Below are positions 47,810-63,214 of a DNA stretch of 64,000 nucleotides, one piece after another; the first letter of the stretch is position 1, and the number at the start of each line of letters is the position of its first letter. This DNA comes from Candidatus Levyibacteriota bacterium (lineage in GTDB: Bacteria > Patescibacteriota > Microgenomatia > Levybacterales > UBA12049), in contig JACOXT010000003.1 in the NCBI GenBank assembly GCA_016182235.1, positions 194,209 through 258,208 on the forward strand, read 5' to 3'. The notes beneath the pieces were generated by a model. The model saw only the letters and a program-made list of their open reading frames with translations. It made no database searches and had not been told where the DNA came from. The position numbers and the translations under genes were made by a program.

Positions 47810-48277
47810 ATGGATAAAAAGGCAGCTAATCCAAAAGCGCCAACTGAAGACACTCTAATGAAAACTGTTACTATGAATAGCTCTATTTTTACAAAAAAAT
47901 TACTAATTATTCTAGTATTAACGATTGTATTTGGGACAGTAACGGGATATATGTTGGCAAAAAGAGGAGGTAGTGAGACGCTAACTAGCGAAGAAGTGAG
48001 CTCTTCGTCCATATCTAAAGGGACCATTGTTGGGTCAGATGATACAAAGATATTTAAAGATATTACGGAAGGTGTTTTGAAAGGCGGAGGAATTAATGGC
48101 GAAGGACAATTTCATTTGGTTCGTCCCGGAGGAGATAGTCAGAATGTTTATCTTACATCCTCAGCAGTAGATCTATCTAAGTTTATTGCCAAAAAGATTA
48201 AGGTTTGGGGGGAAACGCAAAAAGCACAACACGCGGGGTGGCTAATGGATGTCGGCCGTGTTGAGGTTCTTGAGTAA
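47810..48277 (+). CDS. hypothetical membrane-anchored protein
   Basis: 155 aa with one TM ('LLIILVLTIVFGTVTGYML'). It lies directly upstream of ftsE. Confidence 0.5.
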   Translation: MDKKAANPKAPTEDTLMKTVTMNSSIFTKKLLIILVLTIVFGTVTGYMLAKRGGSETLTSEEVSSSSISKGTIVGSDDTKIFKDITEGVLKGGGINGEGQFHLVRPGGDSQNVYLTSSAVDLSKFIAKKIKVWGETQKAQHAGWLMDVGRVEVLE

Positions 48278-48278
48278 A

Positions 48279-48956
48279 ATGATAAAGCTTGAAAATGTTT
48301 CAAAAAGATTTCCAACCGGTATCTTTGCCCTTTCCGATGTCAGTTTTGAAGTCGCAAAAGGAGAGTTTGTATTATTGGTTGGTCCTACGGGCAGTGGCAA
48401 AACAACAATCTTTAGACTTTTGATTCGTGAAATTCTTCCAACTGGTGGTAAAATAATGGTTGACAATCTGGATATCGCGAAGCTTTCTCATGGGAAAATT
48501 GCAAATCTTAGAAAAAAAATAGGTGTGGTATTTCAGGATCTGAAACTCTTGATGGACAGAACTATATTTGAAAATATTGTACTTCCCCTTGAAGTCTCGG
48601 GAATAAAAACTTTGGATGCGATCAAAAGGGTAGATGACGTGATGGTAAAAGTAGGAATATTGGAGCAAAAAGATAAATTTCCAGTTCAACTTTCAGGAGG
48701 AGAGCTTCAAAGAACCGCAATCGCGCGCGCAATCGTGCTTAATCCTCCAATCCTTTTGGCAGACGAGCCTACTGGAGATTTAGATTCGGTAACCGCATCT
48801 GGAATTGTAAATCTTCTGTCTGAGATTAACGAGAAAGGTACGACCGTAGTTATGGCGACCCATAGTCAGGATATCATAAAATCGCTTCCGAAAAGAATAA
48901 TTTCTTTGGATAAAGGGCATTTAGTAACAGATGCTAAGAAAGAAGATAAAAAATGA
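48279..48956 (+). CDS. ftsE: cell-division ABC ATPase FtsE
   Basis: ATG at 48279 (MIKLENVSKRF). Walker A 'GPTGSGKTT', signature 'LSGGELQR' and Walker B 'LLADEPTG'. Confidence 0.9.
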   Translation: MIKLENVSKRFPTGIFALSDVSFEVAKGEFVLLVGPTGSGKTTIFRLLIREILPTGGKIMVDNLDIAKLSHGKIANLRKKIGVVFQDLKLLMDRTIFENIVLPLEVSGIKTLDAIKRVDDVMVKVGILEQKDKFPVQLSGGELQRTAIARAIVLNPPILLADEPTGDLDSVTASGIVNLLSEINEKGTTVVMATHSQDIIKSLPKRIISLDKGHLVTDAKKEDKK

Positions 48957-49822
48957 AAATCCTAAAAACAACATGGCACAATATTCGGCGTTCTCCCTAC
49001 CAGGCTTTTGCCGCAATTTTTATAATTCTTCAGACATTTTTTGTTATATCAATTTTTGCTTATGTAGTTGCGGGTTCGGCAAAAACCATCTCATATCTTG
49101 AGTCATTGCCGCAGGCTCATATATTTTTTAGGAATGATGCAGACCAGGAAGATATAGATTTACTTAAGAAAAAACTGGAGGAAACCGGAAAAGTTTCAGA
49201 AATAAAATTTACCTCGCAAGAGGAGGCTCTTAAAATATACATAGAGCGAACGAAGGACGAAGATCCGCTTCTTAGGGAATTGGTTACTGCCAGTACTCTT
49301 CCGACATCTTTTAGTATAACTGCCATAGATCCTGATTATTTAGCGGAAATTGTTGAAATGGTGAAGACATCACCTATTGTATATCAGACAGTTTTCTTGA
49401 AAGATGTTGTTTCCAAATTAGTAGATTGGACAGATGCGATAAGGAGAGTTGGAGTAATCCTTATTGCCTTTTTAGCGCTTGATTCAATTTTTATTATCGT
49501 TATAATAATCAACATCAAAATTTCACAAAAAAAGGAGGATATTAATATTATGAGGCTTATAGGCGCAGGCGGCTGGTATATTCGTTGGCCGTTTATCCTG
49601 GAGGGAGTATCTTACGGAATTATTGGGGCAGTTATCGGCTGGGCGTTATCCTTCGGAGCATTATGGTATAGCACTCCTTTATTAGTATCTTATTTTAAGG
49701 AAATCCCAATTTTTCCATTGTCTTGGGTCTTTTTAGCGGGATTACTTTTGGGAGAAGTATTACTGGCTATAGTTTTGGGAATACTCTCTAGTTTTCTAGC
49801 CGTATTTAGGTACCTTAAATAA
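48953..49822 (+). CDS. ftsX: cell-division permease-like protein FtsX
   Basis: It overlaps ftsE by 4 nt. One TM, then a periplasmic domain, then three C-terminal TMs. 'MRLIGAGGWYIRWPFILEG' is present. Confidence 0.85.
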   Translation: MKILKTTWHNIRRSPYQAFAAIFIILQTFFVISIFAYVVAGSAKTISYLESLPQAHIFFRNDADQEDIDLLKKKLEETGKVSEIKFTSQEEALKIYIERTKDEDPLLRELVTASTLPTSFSITAIDPDYLAEIVEMVKTSPIVYQTVFLKDVVSKLVDWTDAIRRVGVILIAFLALDSIFIIVIIINIKISQKKEDINIMRLIGAGGWYIRWPFILEGVSYGIIGAVIGWALSFGALWYSTPLLVSYFKEIPIFPLSWVFLAGLLLGEVLLAIVLGILSSFLAVFRYLK

Positions 49823-49833
49823 ATCTTGTATGT

Positions 49834-51009
49834 ATGTTGTTAACAAAGAAAATATTTGTAGCTGGTTTTTTTATAGCATTAATTTTAATAAGCATATTTG
49901 TATCTTTTAATTCCACTGTTTCTGCTCAGTCAGCCTCCGACTTACAAAAGACTATAGACGATCTAAAGGGTAAGATCTCAGATCTTCAGAGTCAAGCGAA
50001 AACTCTGTCTTCCCAAATTGCCATCATGGATAATCAAATAAAACTGACGGAAGCCAGAATTGAACAGAATAAAAAAGAGATAATAGATTTGACACTAGAT
50101 ATTGATACAGCGACAAAGAAAATTCATAACTTACAAGAATCGTTAGATGCTTTATCAGAAGTTCTACTTGCAAGAATAGTTGCTACTTATATATCCGGAA
50201 CGCTAGAGCCCTGGGAAGTAGTGCTTTCCTCAAGGAGTGCTTCAGATCTGTTGTTAAAATACAATTATCTTAAATCTGCCCAATCGCGCGATAAGAGGCT
50301 AATTTTTGAGGTGCAGCAGGCGAAGAATGACTACTCAAACCAAAAATTAATTTTTGAGGATAAGAAAAAAAAGATAGAAGCTCTCAAAATTCAGCTTGAG
50401 AGATATACCATTCAACTTTCTCAAGAAAAGAAAGATAAAAACGCGCTTCTTTTAGTTACGAGAAACGATGAAAAAATTTATCAGCAAAAACTCCAAGCGG
50501 CTTTAGCTGAGCAAGCTGCTATCGCGAAAATTACCGCTGGCGGAGGAGTTACGACTTTTGTTGGGAAAATCAAAGAAGGTGACGTAATAGGGTATGTGAT
50601 AAGCGGATCTTCAGCTTGTTCGTCTGGTGCTCATTTGCATTTTGAGCTATTTAAGGATAAGTCAATCCAAGATCCAAGTAGCTACCTTAGTAATAAGTCT
50701 GTAGATTTTAAAAATGAGCCAGATGGATCTTTCTCCTTTGGGGGATCTTGGAGATGGCCATTGAATGATCCGATACTTATTACGCAAGGATATGGTATGA
50801 CGCACTGGGCAAGACTTGGGTGGTATGGAGGAGGACCTCATACGGGGATAGATATATATTCAAGTTCGTCTTCATCTGTTTATTCTGTTAAAGAGGGAGA
50901 TTTATTTAAAGGAAGTATTGCATGTGGAGGAGGGCAGCTTCTATTTTCAAGAGTTGATCAAAGCGATGGCATTCAAACATTTTATTTACACATGATACCA
51001 GCTAATTAA
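49834..51009 (+). CDS. coiled-coil M23 peptidase (EnvC/PcsB-like FtsEX partner) with permuted motif order
   Basis: Signal/TM, about 200 aa of heptad repeats, then 'EGDVIGYVISGSSACSSGAHLHFELF' (HxH block, aa 248-273). This block precedes 'PHTGIDIY' (HxxxD, aa 335-342), and the protein ends at 'QTFYLHMIPAN'. Confidence 0.8.
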   Translation: MLLTKKIFVAGFFIALILISIFVSFNSTVSAQSASDLQKTIDDLKGKISDLQSQAKTLSSQIAIMDNQIKLTEARIEQNKKEIIDLTLDIDTATKKIHNLQESLDALSEVLLARIVATYISGTLEPWEVVLSSRSASDLLLKYNYLKSAQSRDKRLIFEVQQAKNDYSNQKLIFEDKKKKIEALKIQLERYTIQLSQEKKDKNALLLVTRNDEKIYQQKLQAALAEQAAIAKITAGGGVTTFVGKIKEGDVIGYVISGSSACSSGAHLHFELFKDKSIQDPSSYLSNKSVDFKNEPDGSFSFGGSWRWPLNDPILITQGYGMTHWARLGWYGGGPHTGIDIYSSSSSSVYSVKEGDLFKGSIACGGGQLLFSRVDQSDGIQTFYLHMIPAN

Positions 51010-51026
51010 ACATTTATTGAATTTGT

Positions 51027-51932
51027 TTGAAAAATATATTTTATTTTTCAGTCAGTTTGATTTTAGGAGTTTTTGTATTCTCGTTTTTTCATCCTCTTGC
51101 CTTCGCTGGAAATGTCGTCATAAATGAATTTTTAGTCGATCCAGATAATCAACAATGGGTAGAACTTTATAATAATGGGGCAGAAGTTGTTGATATTAGT
51201 GGGTGGATTATTGATGATGATGGTAGCATTACACAAAAATTTACAATACCAACTAATACAAGTATTAACACAGGAGAATTTAAGATTTTTGAAAGTAGCT
51301 TATTTAATTTAAATAGAACAACTCCAGACACAATTCAGTTAATCAAGGAATCTTCAATAGAAGATAGTTATTTTTACAGTATGGGTCCAGGAGTCAACAA
51401 TTCTTACGGAAGAGATTCGGATGGTAATGGTAATTGGGTGGTTTTTAATGCTCCTACTAAGGGTTCTACGAATAATACGTCAGTTCCAGTACCAACCTCA
51501 ACGCCAACGCTTACTCCAACTCTTGTTCCCACAAATACCCCAACGCCGCCAAGAACACCAACTCCGCCAAAGACACCAACGCCTATTAAAACCCCTACTC
51601 CAACAAAAACTCCAACACCATCACCTACTCCAAAAAACCCGACAAACACTTCAATTAAATCCTCAGCAACAATAAAACCAACTACTTTCTTTACATCCAT
51701 TATTCCTACATCGGTCTTGGGAGAAAGCACAAAAAGCGCAAATATCATTTCGCCAACCAATGAGATGAAAACTAAGATTTCACCTTCACCAAAAGAAACA
51801 ATAGTTCAAGGGACCAGTAAAAATGATTATTCAAAAATCCTGATTGGAGTTGGGGTTATATTTATTTTAGCTTGTGGTATACTTATTTTTCTTAATCACA
51901 AACGAAATAAAAAAGTTAGCGATCTACTCTAA
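51027..51932 (+). CDS. lamin-tail-domain (LTD) surface protein with Pro/Thr linker and C-terminal anchor
   Basis: TTG start. 'VVINEFLVDPDNQQWVELYNNGAEVVDISGWIIDD' is the LTD. A PT-rich spacer and a C-terminal TM 'ILIGVGVIFILACGILIFL' followed by basic residues are present. Confidence 0.75.
   Translation: MKNIFYFSVSLILGVFVFSFFHPLAFAGNVVINEFLVDPDNQQWVELYNNGAEVVDISGWIIDDDGSITQKFTIPTNTSINTGEFKIFESSLFNLNRTTPDTIQLIKESSIEDSYFYSMGPGVNNSYGRDSDGNGNWVVFNAPTKGSTNNTSVPVPTSTPTLTPTLVPTNTPTPPRTPTPPKTPTPIKTPTPTKTPTPSPTPKNPTNTSIKSSATIKPTTFFTSIIPTSVLGESTKSANIISPTNEMKTKISPSPKETIVQGTSKNDYSKILIGVGVIFILACGILIFLNHKRNKKVSDLL
51484..51650 (+). repeat. coding low-complexity tandem repeat (TPTP[PK]xTPTP)
   Basis: Degenerate ACNCCAAC(N)CC(N) periodicity encoding 'TPTLTPTLVPTNTPTPPRTPTPPKTPTPIKTPTPTKTPTPSPTPK'. 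Confidence 0.7.
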
Positions 51933-51943
51933 TAATTTAAATT

Positions 51944-52390
51944 ATGCTTTTTATCACAAAAAGTTCTGAAGAAACCAGAGAACTTGGGAAAGAGCTTGCA
52001 AAAAGTATTCAGAAGGCTCCAAGGCGTCGCCTTGGAGCCTTGATATTAGCTTTGTATGGAGAGCTGGGAAGCGGAAAAACAACTTTTGTTCAAGGAATGG
52101 CTAAGGGTCTTGGAATAGAAAGGAGAATTATTTCACCCACATTTGTAATTATTAGAAGTTATAAAGTAGATATTAAGCACTTTTACCATATTGACTTATA
52201 CAGGATTGATGGTAAAGAAAGTATTAAAGATTTGGGAATAGAGGAGATTATAAATAATCCAGAAAATATTGTGGCGATTGAGTGGGCAGAAAAAATGATA
52301 AGTTTTTTACCAAAGTCCAGGATTGATATCAAGTTTTTCTATGAGAATATCAGTAAGAGAAAAATTGAGATATCCTCTGTAGGCGAGTAA
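51944..52390 (+). CDS. tsaE: tRNA t6A biosynthesis ATPase TsaE
   Basis: 'LYGELGSGKTTFVQGMAKGLG', 'SPTF' and 'HIDLYR' are present. Confidence 0.9.
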   Translation: MLFITKSSEETRELGKELAKSIQKAPRRRLGALILALYGELGSGKTTFVQGMAKGLGIERRIISPTFVIIRSYKVDIKHFYHIDLYRIDGKESIKDLGIEEIINNPENIVAIEWAEKMISFLPKSRIDIKFFYENISKRKIEISSVGE

Positions 52391-52451: not shown

Positions 52452-52480
52452 TTGACTTAATAAATTGGTTGTGGTATATA
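52452..52480 (+). promoter_or_regulatory. sigma70-like promoter of the glycan locus (TTGACT-17-TATATA with TGn)
   Basis: TTGACT at 52452-52457, TGg at 52472-52474 and TATATA at 52475-52480. Confidence 0.55.
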
Positions 52481-52500: not shown

Positions 52501-52737
52501 ATGAGATATATGACTCAAACTAATTTCTTAACAGTTAAAGAGGTGTCAATACTCCTCAAGTTAAGCATGCTTACTATATATAAATATATTCGTGACAGAA
52601 AGCTTGAGGTAATACGGTTCGGTGGCCATTATAGGATTGAGAAACGGTCTCTGGATAAATTTATTGATAATCATCGAATTGGCGAAAGCACAAATACTTA
52701 TTCCACTAAGGAGGTTGACAAAGCAGATGAAATATAA
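52501..52737 (+). CDS. excisionase/MerR-type helix-turn-helix DNA-binding protein
   Basis: 'LTVKEVSILLKLSMLTIYKYIRDRKLEVIRFGGHYRIEKRSLDKFI' is the HTH_17-type domain. ATG at 52501 or 52510. Its stop overlaps the start of the giant ORF by 11 nt. Confidence 0.7.
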   Translation: MRYMTQTNFLTVKEVSILLKLSMLTIYKYIRDRKLEVIRFGGHYRIEKRSLDKFIDNHRIGESTNTYSTKEVDKADEI

Positions 52738-55700
52738 AAAGGTAAGCATTATTGTTCCAGTTTATAACGAAGTTGAGAGTGTCGACGTCTTTTTGGCAAG
52801 GCTCTCCCGCGCCTTTGATAAAAGTAATTTAATCTATGAGGTGATCTTTGTTGATGATAATTCAACAGACGGTACATTTGAAAAAATACAGGGGCTCTTA
52901 AAAAGTGCCAATAAGGGCAATCGCAAAAAGATTAGCTTATATAGAAAAAAAGGAAGAAAAGGAAAAGCGTTTTCGCTAATAGAAGGTTTCAAAAAAGCAA
53001 ATGGAGGCATAGTCGCAATGATAGATGGAGATCTCCAGTATCCCCCAGAGGCTATTCCGCTCATGGCTAATGAATTGGAAAAAGCAGATATTGTGGTTGC
53101 AGATAGAAAAAACCATGAAGGAGAAATTTTAAGGCGGATATTTAGTAAGACTTTCAGGTTTGCTTTTGGAAAATTATTGTTCGGTCTAAATCATGATGTT
53201 CAATCAGGGTTAAAAGTAATGACTCGTGAAGTTATTGAGTCAGTGCAATTCATGCCTGGCTCTCCTTGGACTTTTGACCTTGAGTTTCTTCACCGCGCAA
53301 GACAAGCTGGTTTTGTGATAAAAAATTTTAATATTTCTTTTGCAAGAAGGAAAAGCGGCATTTCAAAAATAACTTTTATTAAAACAACTTTTGAGATCGG
53401 TATAAACGCTCTTAGTGTCCGAAGGAAAAGCATTCATCCTATTCATATTCGCCCAAGGAATAAAGATCTAATGTTGGGGGCAGGGATTGGTTACAAAAGG
53501 AAGAAATACATAACCCATACAACCATGCCCTATCATTCAACCGCAATAAATACATTGAGCCTTGACCAAAAAATAGTCCTGCTTCTTATTGTTCTGGAGA
53601 TCGTTGTTGGGTTCATTTTTCATCCTCTATTGACACTTCAGATCATTGTTGGAGTCTTAAGCTTTATATATTTTGTGGATGTTTTGTTTAATTTGTTTCT
53701 AACCATGAAAAGCTTGAGTTTTCCTCAGGAGATTGAGGCGTCACTTTCGGATCTTGCTAGAATTAATGAGAAAAAGCTCCCAATCTATACCATTCTCTGT
53801 CCATTATATAGAGAGGTTCGTGTTATTCCGCAGTTTCTTAATTCGATAGACAAGCTTTCTTGGCCAAAGGATAAGCTTGATGTAATTCTTCTTCTTGAGG
53901 AAGACGATAAAGAAACAATCAGAGAGGTCCGGAAAATGAATTTGCCATCTTATATCAGAACACTTATTGTGCCTCACTCAATTCCAAAAACAAAGCCAAA
54001 GGCCTGTAACTACGGACTTTCTCATGCAAGAGGTGAATATCTCGTAATTTATGATGCGGAAGATATGCCTGAGGCAATGCAGCTTAAGAAGGCGTATCTT
54101 GGATTTCAGAGAGTAGATAAAGATATTATCTGTCTTCAGGCAAAATTGAATTATTACAATCCTCACCAAAATCTTTTAACTCGTTTTTTTACGGCAGAGT
54201 ATTCGCTTTGGTTTGATATTACACTTCCTGGTCTTCAGTCAATTAACACAACGATCCCATTAGGCGGAACATCAAACCACTTCAAGTTAAAAAGTCTTAT
54301 AGGGGTTGAGGGTTGGGATCCATTCAATGTAACTGAAGATGCTGATTTGGGAATGAGGCTTTTTAAAAAAGGTTATAGAACAGCGATTATCAACTCTACA
54401 ACATTAGAGGAGGCAAACAGTAATATTAGGAATTGGTTAAGACAGCGCTCGCGGTGGATAAAGGGATATATGCAAACATATCTTGTTCATGTTCGAGAAG
54501 CTTTCAAGTTTTCAAAAAATAAGGGAAGACATTCTTTGATTTTCCAGCTTGTAATCGGAGGAAAAATCGCATTCATTCTAATAAATCCCTTACTTTGGTT
54601 TGCAACTTTGGCCTATTTTACTTTATACGCGTATGTTGGCTCTGCTATTGAATCCGTATATCCGTCGATTATTTTTTATATGGCGGCAACGTCTCTTATT
54701 TTTGGTAACTTTCTTTTTCTTTATTACTACATGATTGGAGTTGCCAAAAGAGGTCAATGGAATCTTATGAAATTCGTACTGCTTATTCCGTTTTATTGGT
54801 TAATGATAAGTACTGCGGCTTTTGTTGCTCTATATCAGCTTATCCTAAAGCCCCACTACTGGGAAAAAACAGTTCATGGGTTTCATCTTTCTATAGATAA
54901 TAAAAAGGTAGTGGCAGATGCTGTTTTCGGAGTAGAAGAAACAAGTAGTGGTTTTTCCCTGCCATGGGATTTGAGAAATAGACTAAGAGCTTTTGTTGTA
55001 AGTAGAAAGACCTATATCGGAGGAATTATCCTTATCGTAACTTCTGTTATTGCCAATTTTCTTAATTTTCTATTTAACGCTTATTTGGGGCGGGTTCTTG
55101 AATTTCAAGATTTTGCGACGATTGGGCTTATTGGAGGATTACTTTCTTTAGCATCCATAATGTTCGGAGCTTTCTCAACAACAGCAAACTTCCGAAGCGG
55201 ATTTCTAATAGGTAAATATGGGGATAGGACAGCGTATGATTTTTGGCAAAACTTAAGAAAAAGAGCTATATTTTTCTCGATCATAATTACAGCACTTTGG
55301 ATTTTTTTAACCCCACTTCTCATGAGCTACTTTAACAATAGCAATCCATTCCTTTTTGTTTCTTTTGGATTGATTTTATTGGTTGGATTGGTAATTGGGG
55401 CTGATCGAGGATATTTATATTCTAGATTGAAGTTTGGAAGTGTTGCGATTGTAAATACATTTGACCCTGTCGTAAAACTTATTGCTGCTTTTATGTTTGT
55501 GTATTTTGGCTTAAAAGCTTGGACATATCTTTCAGTGCCTCTAGCGATTTTAGGAACATTTTTTGTTGGTTGGAATTTATCAAAAAAAAATATACCCACC
55601 AAAAAACAAGAAGTGACAGAGGAGATAAAAAAATTTCCTAAGAAGTTTTTTACCTTCTCTACCCTATCTGGTTTCTCATCTGTTTTTTTATTGACCGGTG

Positions 55701-57439
55701 ACATCTTACTTGCAAATCACTTTTTAAGTCAATCTGAAGCTGGACAATATACTCTTTTGTCTCTGGTTGGCAAAATGGTATTTTTCTCAGGAAGTTTAAT
55801 CTCGCCTTTTATGACGCCAATCATAAGCAGGCTCGAAGGAGCAAACAAAAGCTCAATAAAAACTCTATATTTATCTCTTTTATTTACTACGGTTTTTTCA
55901 CTTGGCGGGTTTTTAATCTTTGGATTGTTTGGAAGATTAACAATACCATTTCTTTACGGAGAGAAAGCGTTAACAATAGTTCCATATCTTGGCTTTTTTA
56001 CGCTTGGAATGACTTTTTATACAATTTCGAGAGTTTTTGTAAATTATTATTTGGTCAAAAGGATATACACGTTTATAGTTGCGACTTCTGTTTTGAGTCT
56101 AGTTCAAGTTGTTCTTATATATCTGCAACATGAAAGCGTTGTGGCAATAGCGTTTGATATGACTATCATATGGGGACTTCATCTTTTTTTAACTACAGTA
56201 CTTCATTTTGGCATTAAATACGTAAGAATTTTCGAAAATAATTTCATAGATCTTGTCAAACTATTTTCTAGGGACACGTATTCTAAAGACAATAAGCTTA
56301 ATATTTTAATTTTCAATTGGCGAGATACAAAGCACAAGTGGGCAGGAGGAGCAGAAACCTATATTCATGAATTGGCAAAGCGCTGGATAAAAGATGGAAA
56401 TAGCGTCAGTATTTTCTCCGGAAAAGGAGGTCAAAAATCAATAAATGAAAAAATTGACGGAGTGCAAATATATAGACGCGGAGGATTTTATACCGTTTAC
56501 ATCTGGGCGTTTCTTTATTACATATTCAAATTTAGAGGTAAATTCGATGTGATAATAGATTCGGAAAACGGAATTCCTTTTTTTACTCCGCTTTATGCTA
56601 GAGAAAAGAAATTTCTCCTTATCCACCATGTCCATCAGGAAGTATTTAGAAAAAGCCTAATCTCACCTTTGGCATTACTAGCGTCAGTCCTTGAGACAAA
56701 ACTTATGCCATTAGTCTATAGAAACGTGCAAGTAATAACAGTTTCTCCTTCTTCAAAAGACGAAATTCTAAAACATAGACTCACAAAATCTGAACCAATA
56801 ATAATTTACAATGGCGTTGATTTTACTAAATTTAAGCCAGGTGAAAGGAGTAAAAAACCTGTGATTTTGTATCTTGGGAGACTTCAATATTACAAAAGCC
56901 TAAATATATTCATACGAGCGGCAAAGAGTGTTATTGATAAGATTCCAGACGTCGAATTTGTAATTGCGGGAGAAGGTGAAGAAAAACAAAATCTTCAAAA
57001 ACTTGCAGAGGAATTAGGTTTACAAAAATATATTAAATTCCTGGGAAAAGTGTCAGAGTCGCAAAAAATAGCGCTTTTCCAGAGTGCTTGGCTTTTTGTA
57101 AATCCGTCATTTATGGAAGGATGGGGAATCACGACAATTGAAGCAAACGCTTGCGGAACGCCTGCTATTGCGTCTAATGTTCCGGGCCTTCGAGATTCAG
57201 TCAACAATCCTCATACTGGTATTCTTGTTCCATATGGCAATGTTGAAGGATTTGCAGATGCTATAAAATCGTTGATCAAAGATGAAAATTTAAGAAAAGA
57301 AATGAGTAAAGACGCAATTAAATGGTCGAGTCAATTTGAATGGGGGAAAAGCGCAGGATTATTCTACGAATTTATGCTAAAGGCAATTAATAAAAAGTCT
57401 AGTGCGGACTTAGGTATTGATTCAGGAAGCAAGATCTAG
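52727..57439 (+). CDS. four-module glycan synthase polyprotein: GT2 (Dpm1/GtrB-like) + processive GT2 (QxxRW) + Wzx/MOP-like flippase + GT4
   Basis: ATG at 52727 (MKYKKVSIIVPVYNE). Module 1, about 52727-53414: 'FVDDNSTDGT' and 'MIDGDLQYPP'. Module 2, about 53774-54494: 'KTKPKACNYGL', 'VIYDAEDMPE', 'TEDADLG' and 'QRSRWIKG', flanked by TM bundles. Module 3, about 55004-56219: roughly 12 TM, polysaccharide-flippase-like. Module 4, about 56294-57439: 'NWRDTKHKWAGGAETY' and 'EGWGITTIEANACGTPAIAS'. It is a single uninterrupted frame. Confidence 0.85.
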   Translation: MKYKKVSIIVPVYNEVESVDVFLARLSRAFDKSNLIYEVIFVDDNSTDGTFEKIQGLLKSANKGNRKKISLYRKKGRKGKAFSLIEGFKKANGGIVAMIDGDLQYPPEAIPLMANELEKADIVVADRKNHEGEILRRIFSKTFRFAFGKLLFGLNHDVQSGLKVMTREVIESVQFMPGSPWTFDLEFLHRARQAGFVIKNFNISFARRKSGISKITFIKTTFEIGINALSVRRKSIHPIHIRPRNKDLMLGAGIGYKRKKYITHTTMPYHSTAINTLSLDQKIVLLLIVLEIVVGFIFHPLLTLQIIVGVLSFIYFVDVLFNLFLTMKSLSFPQEIEASLSDLARINEKKLPIYTILCPLYREVRVIPQFLNSIDKLSWPKDKLDVILLLEEDDKETIREVRKMNLPSYIRTLIVPHSIPKTKPKACNYGLSHARGEYLVIYDAEDMPEAMQLKKAYLGFQRVDKDIICLQAKLNYYNPHQNLLTRFFTAEYSLWFDITLPGLQSINTTIPLGGTSNHFKLKSLIGVEGWDPFNVTEDADLGMRLFKKGYRTAIINSTTLEEANSNIRNWLRQRSRWIKGYMQTYLVHVREAFKFSKNKGRHSLIFQLVIGGKIAFILINPLLWFATLAYFTLYAYVGSAIESVYPSIIFYMAATSLIFGNFLFLYYYMIGVAKRGQWNLMKFVLLIPFYWLMISTAAFVALYQLILKPHYWEKTVHGFHLSIDNKKVVADAVFGVEETSSGFSLPWDLRNRLRAFVVSRKTYIGGIILIVTSVIANFLNFLFNAYLGRVLEFQDFATIGLIGGLLSLASIMFGAFSTTANFRSGFLIGKYGDRTAYDFWQNLRKRAIFFSIIITALWIFLTPLLMSYFNNSNPFLFVSFGLILLVGLVIGADRGYLYSRLKFGSVAIVNTFDPVVKLIAAFMFVYFGLKAWTYLSVPLAILGTFFVGWNLSKKNIPTKKQEVTEEIKKFPKKFFTFSTLSGFSSVFLLTGDILLANHFLSQSEAGQYTLLSLVGKMVFFSGSLISPFMTPIISRLEGANKSSIKTLYLSLLFTTVFSLGGFLIFGLFGRLTIPFLYGEKALTIVPYLGFFTLGMTFYTISRVFVNYYLVKRIYTFIVATSVLSLVQVVLIYLQHESVVAIAFDMTIIWGLHLFLTTVLHFGIKYVRIFENNFIDLVKLFSRDTYSKDNKLNILIFNWRDTKHKWAGGAETYIHELAKRWIKDGNSVSIFSGKGGQKSINEKIDGVQIYRRGGFYTVYIWAFLYYIFKFRGKFDVIIDSENGIPFFTPLYAREKKFLLIHHVHQEVFRKSLISPLALLASVLETKLMPLVYRNVQVITVSPSSKDEILKHRLTKSEPIIIYNGVDFTKFKPGERSKKPVILYLGRLQYYKSLNIFIRAAKSVIDKIPDVEFVIAGEGEEKQNLQKLAEELGLQKYIKFLGKVSESQKIALFQSAWLFVNPSFMEGWGITTIEANACGTPAIASNVPGLRDSVNNPHTGILVPYGNVEGFADAIKSLIKDENLRKEMSKDAIKWSSQFEWGKSAGLFYEFMLKAINKKSSADLGIDSGSKI

Positions 57440-57463: not shown

Positions 57464-58208
57464 ATGAAGACAGTAATTTTTGCTGGGGGATTCGGAACCA
57501 GAATAAGCGAGGAGTCAGGCGTAAGGCCAAAACCAATGGTTGAGATTGGCGGCAAGCCTATTTTATGGCATGTAATGAAAATGTACTCAGCCTACGGACT
57601 TAACGATTTTATTATTCTTTGTGGATATAAATCTTCGGTTATTAAAGACTATTTTGCCAATTATTCGCTTTATAATTCCGATGTAACTTTTAACATGCAA
57701 GATCACACCATCCAAACTCACAAAAATGATACGGAAAAATGGAAAGTTACTCTGGTAGAAACAGGTATTAATTCAACAAAAAGCAAGAGACTCCTGTTGG
57801 CCAAGGATTATATTGGAGATGAAACGTTTTGTTTGACTTATGGTGATGGAGTATCAGATCTTAATATTAGGAAGTTAATTAAATTTCATAAAAAAGAAAA
57901 AGCCCTAGTTAGCGTAACTGCGGTTCAGCCTGCCGGACGTTTTGGCGGAATTGTTCTCAAAAAGGGGCAAACAAAGATCACAAGTTTTAAAGAGAAACCA
58001 GAGGGCGACGGAGCGTGGATAAACGGCGGATTCATGGTTGTTGAGCCGGAAGCTCTTTCTTATATTCATGCGCTATCTTGCCGAAGCTGGGAAATTGTCT
58101 GCATTTGTACATAGTGGATATTGGCAATGTATGGATACTCTTCGAGATAAAAATGTGCTTGAGAATATATGGCAGGGAGGAAAAGCGCCATGGAAGGTGT
58201 GGGAATGA
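57464..58208 (+). pseudogene. rfbF: glucose-1-phosphate cytidylyltransferase (RfbF-like), disrupted by a short deletion plus frameshift
   Basis: 'VIFAGGFGTRISEESGVRPKPMVEIGGKPILWHVMKMY' and 'INGGFMVVEP' lie in frame A, which stops at 58112-58114. The conserved C-terminus 'LAEAGKLSAFVHSGYWQCMDTLRDKNVLENIWQGGKAPWKVWE' lies in the +1 frame ending at 58208. The span of 745 nt is 3n+1. About 10-13 residues (the 'D..tWE.ePL' region) are missing at the junction near 58067-58080. Confidence 0.65.
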
Positions 58209-59125
58209 CCATGAATGAGACAATGAGAAATTTACTTGAACAAGAAAAACTTTCAGTGAAATTGCGCTTCACTATCGATCTTGCCAATAAGGCAGGAGAG
58301 GTTATAGTTGCTTCAAGGGGAGGAAAAGTAACCCAAAAAGAGGGAATAAGCAATATCCAAACAGAAGGAGACCTTAATAGTGAGAGAGTTATTGTTGATG
58401 GAATAAGCGCTCAATTTCCTCAGGATTCAATTTTATCAGAGGAAACAAAAACGGAAATAGAGAATCCTCTTGATATAGCTCGACTGTGGGTGATTGATCC
58501 GATTGATGGAAGTGCAAATTATGCGCACGGAATAGATGAAGTATGGGTTTCTGTCGGACAAGTGAGGTTCGGTAAGGGGCATATTGGAGTCGCGCATAAT
58601 CCGTTCCAAAGAAAAACATATTTTGCAGAAAGCGGAAAAGGTACGTACATACTACAGCCAAAAACTCCCGGTAGTGATGCAATGGAATTGAAAAGGATTC
58701 AGGTCGGGAATAGGACGGAGCTTAAAGACGCGACGCTTGAAACAAGCATGTCTTATGATGCTTACCAAAGCCGAAGCCATAATATTATAAAGCTCTATCT
58801 TTCCTTTTTGGGAATGGATGTTAGACCACGGGAAATCGGCTCCTCAGTTGGGCAATTGTGCCGCGTAGCGGCGGGAATGTCAGATATTCATATGCACACG
58901 GGTCTTAAACCGTGGGATTATGCTGCACCCTCAGTTATTTTAGCCGAGGCAGGCGCTGTTATGAGGCGAGCAGACGGTTCAGAATTTAATCCGCTTTTGC
59001 ATCGCGATAATATATCTGGGAACGCGGTACTTGTTGAAAAACTTGTGGAAGCAATAGGCGAGATTAAAGGAAATAAAGAATTTAGCGATTTTATTGCGCA
59101 GCAAATAGAGGATTTTACCGTTTAA
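58205..59125 (+). CDS. inositol monophosphatase family protein
   Basis: ATG at 58205 overlaps the rfbF-frame stop (ATGA). 'SEETKTE', 'WVIDPIDGSANYAHG' and 'KPWDYAAPSVILAEAGA' are present. Confidence 0.8.
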   Translation: MTMNETMRNLLEQEKLSVKLRFTIDLANKAGEVIVASRGGKVTQKEGISNIQTEGDLNSERVIVDGISAQFPQDSILSEETKTEIENPLDIARLWVIDPIDGSANYAHGIDEVWVSVGQVRFGKGHIGVAHNPFQRKTYFAESGKGTYILQPKTPGSDAMELKRIQVGNRTELKDATLETSMSYDAYQSRSHNIIKLYLSFLGMDVRPREIGSSVGQLCRVAAGMSDIHMHTGLKPWDYAAPSVILAEAGAVMRRADGSEFNPLLHRDNISGNAVLVEKLVEAIGEIKGNKEFSDFIAQQIEDFTV

Positions 59126-59131
59126 ATAATT

Positions 59132-60154
59132 ATGAAAATACTTTTGACAGGAATTGACGGATACATAGGAACGGTTTTGGGACAGGAACTCCTAAAGGCG
59201 GGTCATGATGTCGTGGGACTTGATACTGGATTTTATTCAGATCCATGGCTCTATGATTTGCCGGACTTTAAAAAAACACAAGTTTTAAAAAAAGACATAC
59301 GGAAGACCACGAAGGAAGATTTAATAGGATTTGATGCCGTAGTACATCTTGCAGAACTTTGCAATGACCCATTAGGACAAAACGATCCCGAGGTTACTTA
59401 CCAAATTAACCATTTGGGCACAAAAAAACTAGCAAGTTTGGCAAAAGAAACCGGAATTAAAAAATTTATTTATTTTTCTTCATGCAGCGTGTACGGCGCG
59501 TCAGACAATATTGCGGATGAAAAATCACCAACGAATCCCTTAACTGCCTATGCAAAGTCTAAAGTGTTAAACGAACTATTTTTGCAGGATATCGCCGATG
59601 ATAATTTTTCCCCAATAATTTTCAGAAATGCAACTGTGTACGGCGCATCTCCCAGACTCCGATTTGACTTGGTAGTTAACAATCTTGCAGGACTGGCTTT
59701 TACGACAAAAGAAATAAAAATGGATAGCGACGGAACTCCATGGCGGCCGCTAGTTCATGTGTTGGATGTATGCCAGGCAGTTCTTATTGCGCTTGACACT
59801 CCTCGTAAAAAAATACATAACCAAATCATAAATGTTGGGGACACAAGCTCAAACTATCAAATAAAAGATATTGCGGAAATTATAAAAAAAACTTTTCCAG
59901 ATTGTTCTGTTAGCTTGAATAAAGATAGTGTAGATAAAAGAAACTATAGAGTCAATTTTAATAAGATTAGAACCGTTCTTCCCGGGTTCTCCTGTAAATA
60001 CGATGTAGCAAAAAGCGCAAAAGAACTTTTAGATATTTTTACGAAAATAAATTTGTCATTTGAAGACTTCCAATCTCGCAATTTCACAAGACTTAAACAA
60101 ATAAGATTCCTAAGAGATACAAATCAAATTGACAGTAAGTTCTTTTGGAGATAG
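59132..60154 (+). CDS. NAD-dependent nucleotide-sugar epimerase/dehydratase (extended SDR)
   Basis: 'ILLTGIDGYIGTVLG', 'SSCSVYG' and 'YAKSK' (YxxxK) are present. Confidence 0.8.
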   Translation: MKILLTGIDGYIGTVLGQELLKAGHDVVGLDTGFYSDPWLYDLPDFKKTQVLKKDIRKTTKEDLIGFDAVVHLAELCNDPLGQNDPEVTYQINHLGTKKLASLAKETGIKKFIYFSSCSVYGASDNIADEKSPTNPLTAYAKSKVLNELFLQDIADDNFSPIIFRNATVYGASPRLRFDLVVNNLAGLAFTTKEIKMDSDGTPWRPLVHVLDVCQAVLIALDTPRKKIHNQIINVGDTSSNYQIKDIAEIIKKTFPDCSVSLNKDSVDKRNYRVNFNKIRTVLPGFSCKYDVAKSAKELLDIFTKINLSFEDFQSRNFTRLKQIRFLRDTNQIDSKFFWR

Positions 60155-60157
60155 ATT

Positions 60158-61405
60158 ATGAAATTTATTAATCGATTGTACGTCTGCAGATTTTGTAAAA
60201 CACCATTAAAATATACCTTTGTTAACTTAGGTATGTCTCCTATTGCTAATACATACATAAAACCAGAAGACATAAATAAAATGGAACCTTTTTATCCTCT
60301 CCACGTGTATGTATGCAACAAGTGTTTTCTTGTTCAGCTGCCCTCGACAATCGCAAGAGAAGTACACTTTAACAATCATTACGCATACTTTTCTTCTTAT
60401 GCCAAGTCTTGGCTTCAGCACTCAAAAAATTATGTTGACATGATGATGAGACGCTTTAAGTTTGATAAGAGAAATCTTATAGTTGAGATTGCGAGTAATG
60501 ATGGATATTTACTGCAATACTTTAAAGAGCGTCATATTCGAATCTTGGGTATTGAGCCAAGCGGAAATACAGCAAGTGCTGCAAAGAAAAAGGGTATTCT
60601 GACAATTGTGAAGTTTTTTGGGTTAGAAGTCGCAAGAAAACTTATAAAAAACAAAAAATCTGCAGATCTAATAATCGCAAACAACGTCTTAGCTCATGTT
60701 CCTGATCTTAATGATTTTGTGGGTGGAATGAGGAAGCTTTTGAAGCCAAATGGACTTATAACCGTGGAATTTCCTCATCTATACCATCTTATAAAAAATG
60801 TAGAGTTTGACACCATCTATCATGAACATTATTCATATTTTTCTTTTTTGACTGTTGAGAAAATTTTTGCTTATCATAATTTAACGATTTTTGATGTTGA
60901 GGAAATTCCGACTCATGGCGGATCACTTCGTATATTTGCAAAACATATAAAAAATAAGAATCTTCCAATAAATAAATCAGTTGAGAAACTTCGAAATAAA
61001 GAAATAAATTCTGGGCATAAGGATATAAATATGTATCTGCGATTCAAAAATCAAGTGCAAAAGAAAAAGCAGTTGTTTCTTGAATATTTGATTAGACAAA
61101 AAAAGAAAGGGAAATCAATTGTTGGATACGGTGCACCAGCAAAAGGAAATACATTCCTAAATTATTGCGGTATTGGATCTGACCTTATAGAATATACAGT
61201 TGATGCTAGTCCCTACAAACAAAATCATTTGTTGCCGGGAACACATATCCCAATTTATAGTCCAAGAAAGATTAGGCAGACAAGACCGGACCTTGTTGTT
61301 ATTCTTCCATGGAACTTAAGAAACGAAGTCTCTAGGCAAATGAATTTTATCCATTCATGGGGAGGAAAATTCTTAACTACTAAATCCACACCCTCAGTTT
61401 TTTAA
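60158..61405 (+). CDS. NDP-hexose C-methyltransferase (TylCIII-like; N-terminal Zn ribbon + SAM domain + C-methyltransferase C-terminal domain)
   Basis: 'CRFCKTPL...CNKCFLVQL' gives four Cys. 'VEIASNDGYLL' is SAM motif I. The C-terminal 'IVGYGAPAKGNTFLNY' is present. Confidence 0.75.
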   Translation: MKFINRLYVCRFCKTPLKYTFVNLGMSPIANTYIKPEDINKMEPFYPLHVYVCNKCFLVQLPSTIAREVHFNNHYAYFSSYAKSWLQHSKNYVDMMMRRFKFDKRNLIVEIASNDGYLLQYFKERHIRILGIEPSGNTASAAKKKGILTIVKFFGLEVARKLIKNKKSADLIIANNVLAHVPDLNDFVGGMRKLLKPNGLITVEFPHLYHLIKNVEFDTIYHEHYSYFSFLTVEKIFAYHNLTIFDVEEIPTHGGSLRIFAKHIKNKNLPINKSVEKLRNKEINSGHKDINMYLRFKNQVQKKKQLFLEYLIRQKKKGKSIVGYGAPAKGNTFLNYCGIGSDLIEYTVDASPYKQNHLLPGTHIPIYSPRKIRQTRPDLVVILPWNLRNEVSRQMNFIHSWGGKFLTTKSTPSVF

Positions 61406-61406
61406 T

Positions 61407-61928
61407 ATGAAACTAATAAAAACAAAAATAAAAGGAGTACTTTTGGTTAATCTTGAAAAGAAAGAAGACGAACGGGGTTCTTTGACGAGAGTATGGGACG
61501 CTTCGGAGTTTAAAAAGAATGGAATAAATTTCAATATGCAGGAAGGATATGTCACGCATTCGATAAGCAAAGGAACCATGCGTGGCATCCATTATCTTAA
61601 AGTTCCGGAACAAAAACTTACAAAAGTTGTGAAAGGGAAAGTTTATGAAGTAGCAATTGATATCAGGCCGGATTCGAAAACCTTTAGAAAATGGGAGGCA
61701 TTTACCCTCAAAGACAAGGATAACAAAATGCTTTATATGGGGCCCGGTATTGCGCACGCAATATTGACACTTGAGGATAATACTGAGCTTACGAGTCTGT
61801 ATTCTCCTGCATACGTTCCGGGAAATGAGGGAGGGATAAGATATAATGACCCTTCATTTAATATTAACTGGCCAATACCTATAACAAAAGTTTCTAAAAA
61901 AGATTTATCTTGGGAGGATTTTAAGTGA
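61407..61928 (+). CDS. NDP-4-keto-6-deoxyhexose 3,5-epimerase-like cupin (RmlC family)
   Basis: 'DERGSLTRVW', 'RGIHY' and 'KVVKGKVYEVAIDIR' are present. 173 aa. Confidence 0.8.
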   Translation: MKLIKTKIKGVLLVNLEKKEDERGSLTRVWDASEFKKNGINFNMQEGYVTHSISKGTMRGIHYLKVPEQKLTKVVKGKVYEVAIDIRPDSKTFRKWEAFTLKDKDNKMLYMGPGIAHAILTLEDNTELTSLYSPAYVPGNEGGIRYNDPSFNINWPIPITKVSKKDLSWEDFK

Positions 61929-63214
61929 TTATAGTAGACAAAGCTTTAGAAAAATTGGAAAAAGAAAGTAACCCAATCAGGGTCGGGCTTGTGGGTGCTG
62001 GTTTTGCTGGCCGCGGATTTATGCTTCAAATGCTCGACTTTATAAAAGGAATGAGGCTAGTTGCGGTTTCAAATAGAACAAGGTCTGGCGCAGTCCTAGG
62101 TTTTAAGCAGGGAGGCTACACAAATTACAAAGATGTAAAAAGCTTAAAAGAACTTGAAGGCACTATAAAAATCGGAAAAACGGCGCTCACAAATAATCCA
62201 TTCCTACTTACCGATTCTAGGCAAATAGATGTTATTGTTGAAGCAACAGGGGAGGTAGAGTTTGGAGCTCAAGTGGTTTTGCGCGCAATTGAAAAGGGGA
62301 AACATACTGTTTTGATAAATGCGGAACTTGATTCAACTCTCGGACCTATTCTCAAAGTAAAAGCTGACAGGAAAAACGTTGTTTACACTCAAGCCGAAGG
62401 TGACCAGCCCGGAGCACTTATGAATTTATTCCGCCAGGTAAAGGGTTGGGGATTCAAGCCCGTTATGGTTGGCAATATTAAAAGTTTGATTGACGTAAGG
62501 CGAACCCCAAAAACCCAGGAAAGATGGGCAAATGAGCATTTTCAAAGACCTAAAATGGTTACTTCTTTTGCTGATGGAACAAAAATAGGAGCAGAAATGG
62601 CAACTATCGCAAACGCCACTGGATTTCCGGTAAGTAAACGTGGCATGGAGGGTCCGAAATGCGATAGGGTCGAAAACGCATACAAACTGTTTAATTTTAA
62701 AAAATTAACATTGACTGGTTTAACTGATTATGTTTTGGGAGCGGAGCCAAGTTTTGGAATTTTTGTTTTGGCAACCTGTGACCAGAAGATAAGAAGAAGA
62801 TATATTAAAATTTACAAAATGGGAAGTGGCCCTCTCTATACATTTTATACCCCATACCACCTAAGTCCACTTGAGGCGCCGATTAGCGTTGCTCGAGCCG
62901 CAATATTTAAAGACGCGGTGCTTGCGCCAATCGGCAAACCAATTTGTGACGTTGTAACGCTTGCAAAAAGAGATATCAGAAAAGGCGAGAAACTTGATGG
63001 GATTGGAGGCTTTTTAACTTACGGCGCGATAGATAACTACGATGTCTCACTTAAAGACAATCTGCTTCCGATTGGACTTTCAGAAGGATGCATAGTGAAA
63101 CAGGATATAAAAATAGATGCCGCAATTACATATGACATGGTAAAGCTTCCGAAAAAAAGAATATCCGACAAATTAAGAAAAGAACAAAACAAAATGTTTT
63201 TTGGAGGAAAATAA
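61925..63214 (+). CDS. NAD(P)-binding oxidoreductase with C-terminal SAF-like domain (COG4091-type)
   Basis: 'VGLVGAGFAGRGF' is the Rossmann motif, and 'AEGDQPG' is present. The C-terminal 'RDIRKGEKLDGIGG' is SAF-like. It overlaps both neighbours. Confidence 0.6.
   Translation: MIIVDKALEKLEKESNPIRVGLVGAGFAGRGFMLQMLDFIKGMRLVAVSNRTRSGAVLGFKQGGYTNYKDVKSLKELEGTIKIGKTALTNNPFLLTDSRQIDVIVEATGEVEFGAQVVLRAIEKGKHTVLINAELDSTLGPILKVKADRKNVVYTQAEGDQPGALMNLFRQVKGWGFKPVMVGNIKSLIDVRRTPKTQERWANEHFQRPKMVTSFADGTKIGAEMATIANATGFPVSKRGMEGPKCDRVENAYKLFNFKKLTLTGLTDYVLGAEPSFGIFVLATCDQKIRRRYIKIYKMGSGPLYTFYTPYHLSPLEAPISVARAAIFKDAVLAPIGKPICDVVTLAKRDIRKGEKLDGIGGFLTYGAIDNYDVSLKDNLLPIGLSEGCIVKQDIKIDAAITYDMVKLPKKRISDKLRKEQNKMFFGGK

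Follow-up and report, generated by a model that had tools for sequence, protein, structure and literature searches.

The locus and its open reading frame

The window, a stretch of 64,000 nucleotides from a Candidatus Levyibacteriota bacterium (contig JACOXT010000003.1), carries on its forward strand a gene at 52727–57439 whose single product of 1,570 residues joins four glycan-assembly modules. Window positions are used throughout and the residues of the protein are numbered from ATG 52727. In order, the modules are a cytoplasmic family 2 glycosyltransferase (GT2) of the polyprenyl-phosphate sugar synthase type (M1, 52727–53434, aa 1–236), a membrane-integrated synthase-type GT2 (M2, 53435–54931, aa 237–735), a 12-helix PST/Wzx-like transporter module of the MOP superfamily (M3, 54989–56281, aa 755–1185) and a cytoplasmic family 4 glycosyltransferase (GT4) of the GT-B type (M4, 56300–57391, aa 1192–1555). 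The first-pass annotation, made from the sequence, had placed a GT2, a second GT2, a flippase and a GT4 in this order within one uninterrupted frame. Both the order and the frame are confirmed, the latter running from ATG 52727 to 57439 (+) for 1,570 codons without a stop, and every peptide motif quoted at that stage was found in the translation.

The open reading frame (ORF) as listed spans 52622–57439 (+) and opens at an upstream GTG. ATG 52727 is nevertheless the likely start, since the N-terminus that it gives, MKYKKVSIIVPVYNE, matches the orthologue consensus in the alignment and a Shine-Dalgarno sequence AAGGAGG, read from the sequence at 52708–52714 (+) within the preceding helix-turn-helix (HTH) gene, lies 12 nt upstream of it.

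A protein of this length invites the suspicion that adjacent genes were wrongly merged into one frame by assembly or annotation, which the first-pass annotation had itself named as the main alternative. The unusual length alone speaks for such a joining. Against it, a 100% identical protein is deposited at NCBI (MBI2028291.1, Candidatus Levybacteria; contig of 600,876 bp). Of the best 120 relatives, which come from NCBI, JGI, ENA and Logan assemblies, about 105 are full-length orthologues (98–100% coverage, ~1,540–1,610 aa, 49–70% identity). The third module is present at the same position in 119 of these 120, and the catalytic residues are invariant in all modules of the orthologue alignment. 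The identical deposited protein and the conservation in more than 100 independent assemblies thus exclude a mis-assembly, and the probability left to an artefact is practically negligible. The G+C content of the gene is that of its flanks, and an open frame of about 1,570 codons in DNA of 35% G+C is, by estimate, far beyond chance. This 1,570-residue membrane protein is real and widely conserved in the Microgenomates, a part of the Candidate Phyla Radiation (CPR).

In the databases the four-module protein is named merely 'glycosyltransferase'. The earlier impression that the fusion is undescribed holds as far as the literature searches reach, which returned no published description of the four-module fusion or of CPR glycan machinery. 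Every module is of a known kind; new are their combination and its link to two unannotated families of membrane proteins, called X and Y below.

M2, the synthase-type glycosyltransferase

M2 consists of a conserved β-strand lead-in, two transmembrane (TM) helices, a GT-A domain, interface helices and C-terminal TM helices. It matches PF13641 and PF13632, with the Pfam GT2 region at aa 354–639, and is the most conserved module (column identity 0.76–0.86). Asp393 and Asp394, the Asp443-Ala-Glu-Asp446 motif, Glu537-Asp538 of the TED motif and Gln573-Arg-Ser-Arg-Trp577 are invariant in sets of 25 and of 84 orthologues. The AlphaFold2 model of the module (pLDDT 87.4, pTM 0.87) gave as its best Foldseek matches BcsA (1.1e-14; TMq 0.61 over 449 columns, 4p00_A), the hyaluronan synthases (~1e-13) and PcManGT (TMt 0.71). 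By sequence the kinship is remote: phmmer against the PDB returned weak matches to PcManGT and TarS only, and the scores lie below the curated cut-offs for CelA (TIGR03030, 64.8 bits vs 699.1) and PgaC_IcaA (TIGR03937, 50.9 vs 422.3).

Two TM helices had been noticed between the first and second modules. They are present, and they belong to M2 and not to M1, since relatives that consist of M2 only align from query residues 231–277, ahead of these helices; the M2 profile, which starts at aa 282, was likewise matched from its first positions. The description of M2 as a processive synthase with its own channel stood in part. The motifs and the fold agree with it, and M2 is likely a processive polymer exporter; the set of D, DxD, TED and QxxRW motifs is found in non-processive lipid glycosyltransferases as well, and M2 orthologues score above the cut-off of the Pfam family Glyco_transf_21 (GT21; up to 32.3 bits vs 21.7), a match overlain by far stronger generic GT2 matches.

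A strongly conserved stretch, SMxGAGxGYKKxKYITHTTLPHxxSALxTF, follows M1 and precedes the first TM helix of M2 (aa 249–282, nt 53471–53572). It is predicted to form three short β-strands (pLDDT 84–90) and is kept in M2-M3-M4 proteins that lack M1. The linker between M2 and M3 is poorly conserved, has a pLDDT below 50 and is predicted to be disordered. A docking of the modules into one channel, raised at the outset, finds no support here.

M1, M3 and M4

The GT2 domain of M1 (PF00535, aa 7–171) has the DPMS, ArnC and GtrB enzymes as its nearest solved structures (5mlz at 9e-22, 1e-17 and 3e-16, respectively, with generic GT2s at about 1e-5), which supports its earlier assignment to the polyprenyl-phosphate sugar synthase type. 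Residues Asp43 and Asp44 and the Asp100-x-Asp102 pair are invariant in the orthologues. The best NCBIfam models all remain below their cut-offs (PgfS, 83.6 bits vs 500; ArnC, 76.7 vs 529; AglJ, 44.3 vs 325). M1 ends at about aa 236 and has neither a C-terminal TM hairpin of its own nor a GtrA/DPMS TM domain, whereas the stand-alone M1-like protein of Clostridium drakei does carry PF04138 (GtrA_DPMS_TM).

In four relatives (loci L001, L002, L004 and L005) no Bac_transf or Glycos_transf_4 protein was found among the called neighbours of the gene. This lack of a phosphoglycosyl transferase nearby fits a role of M1 in supplying the lipid-linked sugar. No initiating phosphoglycosyl transferase was seen among the scanned ORFs of the window either, most of the window ORFs lying outside the scan. 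The pairing of a phosphoglycosyl transferase with a Wzy polymerase, by which a Wzx/Wzy locus is recognised, was absent from the scanned ORFs and neighbours.

M3 of the window protein has no Pfam match even at E = 10. Since Pfam gave nothing on the module alone, its identification came from the orthologues and from the predicted structure. At the same position, orthologues reach 53.5 and 43.5 bits for PF13440 (Polysacc_synt_3; cut-off 23), and PF01943 (Polysacc_synt) was matched in six of six tested orthologues (25.9–31.8 bits, cut-off 28.2). The AlphaFold2 model (pLDDT 92.2, pTM 0.88) contains 12 long helices, and its top 50 PDB matches are all MATE, MurJ or WzxE proteins (TMt up to 0.73, for WzxE). 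The module had been described as Wzx-like, with the possibility left open that it might be unrelated to flippases; with all 50 structural matches in the MOP superfamily and orthologues above the PF13440 cut-off, it is the former that applies. By our own reading, the charged loops fit a topology with both termini on the inside.

M4 bears out its description as a cytoplasmic GT4, with matches to PF13439 (58.3 bits) and PF00534 (162.8 bits), a GT4 span at aa 1207–1533 and the EX7E motif, whose Glu1464 and Glu1472 are invariant in the orthologues. Its nearest solved structures are the MshA, PimA and PglA/H-type enzymes. In NCBIfam scans none of the four modules attained a curated cut-off.

Fused and split states among relatives

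A profile scan with one genome per species yielded at least 598 relatives, and hidden Markov models of the four modules were run over 85 loci, the individual ones being cited as L001, L002 and so on. The same orthologous modules recur, nearly always in the order M1, M2, M3, M4, in about 14 split or fused states. The complete M1-M2-M3-M4 protein is found in 14 loci, the window included. M2-M3-M4 occurs in 7 loci, plus 2 that have a separate M1 upstream; M1-M2 with a separate M3-M4 in 3; M2 with a separate M3-M4 in 2; M1-M2-M4 in 4, plus 2 with M3 as the next gene; M2-M4 in 2; M2 and M3 as separate genes in 3; M1-M2 in 8; and M2 alone in 35. In the split form of L001, an HTH_17 gene is followed by a 752-aa M1-M2 protein and an 826-aa M3-M4 protein, with overlaps of 4 nt. 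The split points coincide with poorly conserved linkers of low pLDDT. A library-wide search found M3 elsewhere as a free-standing protein, in MOP-GT4 proteins of ~800–830 aa and combined in still other ways.

The fusion is thus real and yet evolutionarily fluid, and the protein is not an obligatory single-chain machine. A survey of fused against split genes had been suggested at the outset; the modules are not always encoded separately, the same fusion being present in 14 of the 85 loci, and many split states exist beside it. The idea that a complete assembly line resides in one protein proved overstated, as relatives split, drop and re-join the modules and the partners X and Y are conserved outside it.

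In L027 (743–4990) and L037 (5920–10080) the fused protein consists of M1, M2, the C-terminal half of M3 and M4, and a full-length M3 is encoded separately behind it; these two proteins resemble stages in the loss or replacement of a module. Extra M1-M2 paralogues lie near the main gene in L004 (5094–7319, −) and in L037 (1–1515 and 3212–5488, −). CPR-type four-module loci with Y and X genes were also met in many third-party annotation (TPA) metagenome-assembled genomes labelled 'uncultured Gammaproteobacteria', 'Bdellovibrionales' or 'Pseudomonadales' (L006, L008, L009, L011, L020, L021 and others), and these taxonomic labels may be placeholders or errors.

Beyond the CPR, M2 alone is found at 45–52% identity in Chloroflexota, Actinomycetota (Paraconexibacter, Solirubrobacterales, Gaiellales) and Bacillota (Clostridium drakei, Desulforamulus aeronauticus, Paenibacillus macquariensis). 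These homologues bear one to five N-terminal MshEN domains, which are receptors of cyclic di-GMP (c-di-GMP). A GtrB/DPMS-type gene adjoins M2 in C. drakei, where it includes GtrA_DPMS_TM, and in P. macquariensis (twice), and lies about 2 kb off in D. aeronauticus. The two cases in P. macquariensis (L082, 5080–8475 and 10577–13965) are tandem copies of a pair formed by an MshEN-M2 gene and a GtrB-like gene. Very long N-terminal extensions are seen in some Chloroflexota homologues (L064, 3343–7371; L066; L078), and the five MshEN stretches in the 1,343-aa protein of L064 suggest multi-site c-di-GMP sensing.

Partner families X and Y

Nearly every locus contains one or two further same-strand proteins of 500–560 aa with 7–12 TM helices, which cluster into the two families X and Y; one or both are found in 67 of 84 loci. 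X occurs in CPR and non-CPR loci alike. It adjoins M2 in Actinomycetota, Chloroflexota and Bacillota, and in some Chloroflexota it is fused to the C-terminus of M2 (L061, L062, L068 and L069). The X domain of L061 passes the PMT_2 cut-off (PF13231, 30.5 bits vs 26.1), and PMT_2 or PMT matches fall at the same position in five of five diverse X proteins, below threshold (E 4e-5 to 1.6e-3). An aspartate (Asp56) in an N-terminal YxDAxSHL motif is nearly invariant. On these grounds X looks like a GT-C/PMT_2-like membrane protein. Its more than 2,300 database relatives are all named 'hypothetical protein' or unnamed.

Y is homologous to X (hhalign probability 96.7%, E 4e-10) and was seen in CPR-type loci only (L002–L058), where Y and then X end the variable cluster 2–7 kb 3' of the large gene. 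Its occurrence tracks M4, with Y present in 30 of 39 loci that have M4 and in 3 of 45 without it, counts that ignore phylogenetic relatedness. Y could be a polymerase-like protein.

The upstream HTH gene and promoter

The gene is preceded by an ORF of 78 aa (52501–52737, +; ATG 52501, TAA 52735–52737) that belongs to the HTH_17/excisionase family, scoring 44 bits for PF12728 (HTH_17; cut-off 27) and 47.8 for TIGR01764 (cut-off 28.8). Its 11-nt overlap with the large gene, as first described, is borne out. An HTH_17 gene stands directly 5' of the M1/M2 gene in 7 loci, in any fusion state; as a neighbour it is a recurrent minority (6 of 76 loci having enough upstream sequence). Homologous HTH ORFs adjoin the M1/M2 gene upstream in L001, L004, L016, L020, L042 and L045. 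The intergenic region 5' of the L002 orthologue (~7760–7870) has no HTH gene, and its ORF translations are of the kind that a tRNA gene gives when read in protein frames.

Upstream of the HTH gene, the promoter-like sequence TTGACT-17 nt-TGgTATATA can be read at 52452–52480 (+). A consensus promoter scan of the region is uninformative alone, with 26 sites against 19.9 ± 4.7 in shuffles and thus no enrichment. The same element is kept at the same spacing 5' of the HTH gene in L004, and the equivalent place in L020 is occupied by a consensus TTGACA-17-TATAAT. The extended −10 promoter proposed earlier is therefore plausible, and the element presumably functions as such. No operator palindrome common to the regions upstream of the HTH genes was consistent across six loci. 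The HTH protein, which would be co-transcribed with the large gene from this conserved sigma-70-like promoter, probably regulates the operon.

Gene neighbourhood in the window

Seven co-directional sugar-nucleotide genes, recognised by domain scans, follow the large gene at 57464–63783 (+). They encode a glucose-1-phosphate cytidylyltransferase (TIGR02623, 302.2 bits vs an equivalog cut-off of 300.25), an IMPase-family phosphatase, an SDR epimerase/dehydratase, a C-methyltransferase, an RmlC-like 3,5-epimerase, a DRL/SAF oxidoreductase and a small methyltransferase. The cluster is plausibly a route to a CDP-activated C-methyl deoxysugar. The earlier suggestion of downstream tailoring genes for an unusual sugar gains support from the cytidylyltransferase at its equivalog cut-off, the C-methyltransferase, the RmlC-like epimerase and the oxidoreductases; a link of these genes to the large protein is suggested by their adjacency. 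In the relatives L001, L002, L004 and L005 the downstream clusters differ in gene content, like serotype-variable regions. A further ORF (63780–64000, +; translation MKKKLSLTVGITTCYGDKSILETVESIRAS...) opens with an ATG overlapping the stop of the gene before it and extends past the window edge, and the cluster with it; its N-terminus appears GT2-like by our own reading.

The region directly upstream (48249–52390, +) contains an apparently ABC-ATPase-like ORF, FtsX (48953–49822), an M23 peptidase with an N-terminal TM helix (49834–51009), a membrane protein with a Lamin Tail Domain (51027–51932) and TsaE (51944–52390), all on the forward strand. The order FtsE/FtsX/peptidase/TsaE, plus a VanZ gene, is also seen 5' of the orthologue in a Curtissbacteria metagenome-assembled genome (L005). 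The block resembles a patescibacterial operon of VanZ, ABC, peptidase and Lamin-tail genes (PMC12419801).

Elsewhere in the window, a 436-aa protein with about 9 TM helices (33248–34558, +), 18 kb from the large gene, reaches the PMT_2 cut-off (48.8 bits). It was considered as a member of family X and rejected, no relation being detectable; it could be another consumer of polyprenyl-phosphate sugars. On the reverse strand lie genes for an undecaprenyl-diphosphatase (BacA/UppP, 227 bits; 44573–45343) and an NAGPA-family phosphodiester glycosidase (42979–44178), which are relevant to lipid-carrier recycling and glycan processing.

Proposed mechanism and alternative explanations

From the ORF, its conservation, the folds, motifs and variants, and the M2–X and M4–Y associations, we infer a set of substrates, products and hand-over steps. 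The protein is tentatively read as that half of a surface-glycan assembly system of Microgenomates which works on the cytoplasmic face, a proposal that we regard as quite possible, if somewhat short of probable. M2, which resembles BcsA and hyaluronan synthase, would polymerise a backbone from a nucleotide sugar and thread the chain across the membrane. M1, resembling DPMS, ArnC and GtrB, would load a sugar on polyprenyl phosphate; M4 and the variable transferases encoded in the cluster may extend the lipid-linked intermediates, and M3 would flip the lipid-linked sugar or oligosaccharide to the outer leaflet. There, the GT-C-like X and Y would transfer the flipped sugars to the M2 product or to another wall acceptor. 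A synthase-made backbone and its lipid-carrier-dependent decoration would thus be hard-wired through gene fusion. GT-C enzymes draw on polyprenyl-phosphate-linked donors on the outer side of the membrane. The decoration of the backbone through a lipid carrier is suggested by M1 being of the type that makes such donors, M3 of the type that flips them, and X being tied to M2; it is the fusion or adjacency of M2 and X that ties the lipid-carrier branch to a synthase-type enzyme. The UppP and PMT_2 proteins found elsewhere in the window and the MshEN domains of the non-CPR M2 homologues were counted as further support for the proposal.

Several observations weigh against this proposal. M2 may not export a polymer: non-processive lipid glycosyltransferases have its motif set too, its orthologues score above the GT21 cut-off, and one of its closest structural matches, PcManGT, is non-processive. 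After the glycosyltransferase domain of M2, hydropathy gives three clear hydrophobic helices and AlphaFold2 a single one of 44 residues, while fusion to a MOP module with its N-terminus inside requires an even number of crossings. M4 lacks a specific assignment, every NCBIfam match being far below cut-off. Several fused variants lack M3 or have it truncated, which makes flipping in cis dispensable. As for the partners, the GT-C assignment of X comes mostly from sub-threshold matches, the X and Y profiles match nothing in the PDB by sequence, the co-occurrence statistics of both families take no account of phylogenetic relatedness, and no X or Y gene lies inside the window, which ends 6.5 kb after the gene.

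The same modules could alternatively act along a single lipid-linked route in the manner of the haloarchaeal Agl pathway, in which M1 would prime, M4, M2 and the cluster transferases would elongate, M3 would flip and Y and X would transfer or polymerise outside, the TM helices of M2 binding a lipid acceptor instead of exporting a polymer. The fixed order of the modules is compatible with such a pathway order, and so is the lack of a phosphoglycosyl transferase near the gene in the four relatives mentioned above. M1 matches the AglJ and dolichyl-phosphate hexose transferase models and M4 that of Agl16, all below cut-off; PcManGT, a mannosyltransferase of lipid-linked glycans with a minimal cellulose-synthase-like fold, is a top match of M2 (TMt 0.71); and Y tracks M4 and M3, as would be expected if Wzx-flipped units need an enzyme outside. 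Yet M2 is 45–52% identical to stand-alone homologues that have no M3 or M4 and carry the c-di-GMP receptors typical of exopolysaccharide synthases, its best structural matches over about 450 columns including the TM helices are BcsA and the hyaluronan synthases, and its QRSRW and TED motifs, both invariant, are the classic ones of processive enzymes, which together make this route rather unlikely. Those stand-alone homologues bear equally on the view that the fusion serves co-expression, stoichiometry or streamlining in a reduced CPR genome, with no hand-over between modules that belong to separate pathways, for they show that M2 operates without the other modules in other phyla. The free gain, loss and splitting of modules and the poorly conserved, presumably disordered M2–M3 linker speak for it too. 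Such independence is nonetheless improbable given that the four orthologous modules stay adjacent and in near-constant order across many lineages and fusion states, that X and Y co-vary with particular modules, and that M1-type genes neighbour M2 outside the CPR as well.

The GT21 score of the M2 orthologues suggests a glycolipid system, in which M2 and/or M4 would act like GT21 or Mgs/PimA enzymes and add sugar to a membrane lipid, for instance diacylglycerol, and M3 would flip the product as an anchor or envelope lipid of these bacteria, which scavenge their lipids. Such a scheme parallels the logic of MprF and of YpfP/LtaA. PimA is among the solved relatives of M4, which also has a weak NCBIfam match to monoglucosyl-diacylglycerol synthase, and MOP-GT4 fusions are a common free-standing unit. 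The GT21 matches nevertheless lie beneath much stronger generic GT2 matches, the hypervariable downstream clusters of sugar-tailoring genes suggest a complex glycan, and the pairing and fusion of M2 with a GT-C-like protein across phyla, together with the adjacent polyprenyl-phosphate-type GT2, would be left unexplained; we consider a glycolipid product distinctly improbable. Returning to the synthase-made backbone with lipid-carrier-dependent decoration, a broader and more doubtful extension is that the M2–X pair represents an unrecognised hybrid polysaccharide route, in which a chain made or exported by the synthase would be completed, branched or anchored outside by lipid-carrier-dependent GT-C enzymes. 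It would be gated by c-di-GMP through MshEN in free-living bacteria, and constitutive and hard-wired to M1, the flippase and the GT4 in Microgenomates.

Comparison with known systems

In the three-component systems GtrA/GtrB/GtrC, ArnC/ArnEF/ArnT, CsbB/GtcA/YfhO and GacI/GacJ/GacK/GacL, the polyprenyl-phosphate sugar produced by a GT2 is moved by a flippase, and a GT-C enzyme then passes the sugar on outside. M1 is likewise a GT2 of the DPMS/GtrB type, X and Y are GT-C-like, and the flippase in the group A carbohydrate system of streptococci, GacK, is like M3 a MOP protein, of the Wzx type. The components of those systems are separate proteins, however, and their acceptor glycan comes from an ABC-transporter or Wzy pathway, whereas M1 has no TM anchor of its own and shares one chain with a synthase-type GT2, a MOP module and a GT4, and X and Y are unannotated proteins of weak PMT_2 similarity. 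The N-glycosylation pathway of Haloferax, where AglJ starts on polyprenyl monophosphate, AglG, AglI and AglE extend, the Wzx-like MOP protein AglR flips and the Dol-P-Man transferase AglS acts outside, offers a DPMS-like GT2, further transferases, a Wzx-like MOP protein and an external GT-C/PMT_2-like enzyme. It differs in having no synthase-type QxxRW enzyme, and the AglJ and Agl16 matches of the present modules are far below cut-off; no oligosaccharyltransferase was met here, no search aimed at one having been made.

M2 shares the D, DxD, TED and QxxRW motifs, the flanking TM helices and the fold with BcsA, the hyaluronan and chitin synthases and PgaC/IcaA. It differs from BcsA, hyaluronan synthase and PgaC in its remote sequence, in the absence of PilZ and of a BcsB- or PgaD-type partner, and in its pairing with a GT-C-like protein. 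The clostridial cellulose synthase CcsA was considered as a counterpart of M2 and rejected, being a PilZ-type enzyme at another locus (PMC7710045). In E. coli, the exopolysaccharide synthase NfrB, a c-di-GMP-activated GT2, is switched on through an MshEN domain (PMC8669469). NfrB combines the DxD, TED and QxxRW motifs with MshEN as do the non-CPR M2 homologues, but its MshEN domain is C-terminal, whereas in the M2 family the domain is N-terminal and often repeated and in the CPR protein it is absent; the NfrB partners NfrA and YbcH are also absent from the M2 system. NfrB was rejected as an M2 orthologue (21% identity, E 9e-8). MprF, a fusion of synthase and flippase for aminoacyl-phospholipids (10.1101/2022.03.11.483950), shares with the arrangement proposed for M4-M3 or M1-M3 the concept of a lipid-modifying enzyme joined to the flippase of its product; its folds and chemistry are unrelated and it has no glycosyltransferase.

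Implications

The presence of a synthase-type GT2 and a lipid-carrier branch in one chain contradicts the usual view of these as alternative export routes. If real, the M2–X route would form a pathway class of its own beside those of the Wzx/Wzy, ABC-transporter and classical synthase type. The many fused and split variants serve as a natural Rosetta stone that links four cytoplasmic activities with the unannotated X and Y, two families of apparently hundreds to thousands of members each, labelled "hypothetical protein" or unlabelled. The single-chain form would be an attractive target for cryo-electron microscopy of the coupling between synthesis and flipping, and the three-gene operon of Clostridium drakei (L072, 4406–9390), composed of X, the GtrB/DPMS-GtrA gene and MshEN-M2, is a culturable entry point.

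CPR bacteria are mostly uncultured and their envelopes poorly understood. One system is found in many of their lineages, with a reduced form in Terrabacteria that is apparently under c-di-GMP control, and a conserved gene heading a glycan cluster of hypervariable content makes a good candidate for the main surface-glycan machinery of the CPR.

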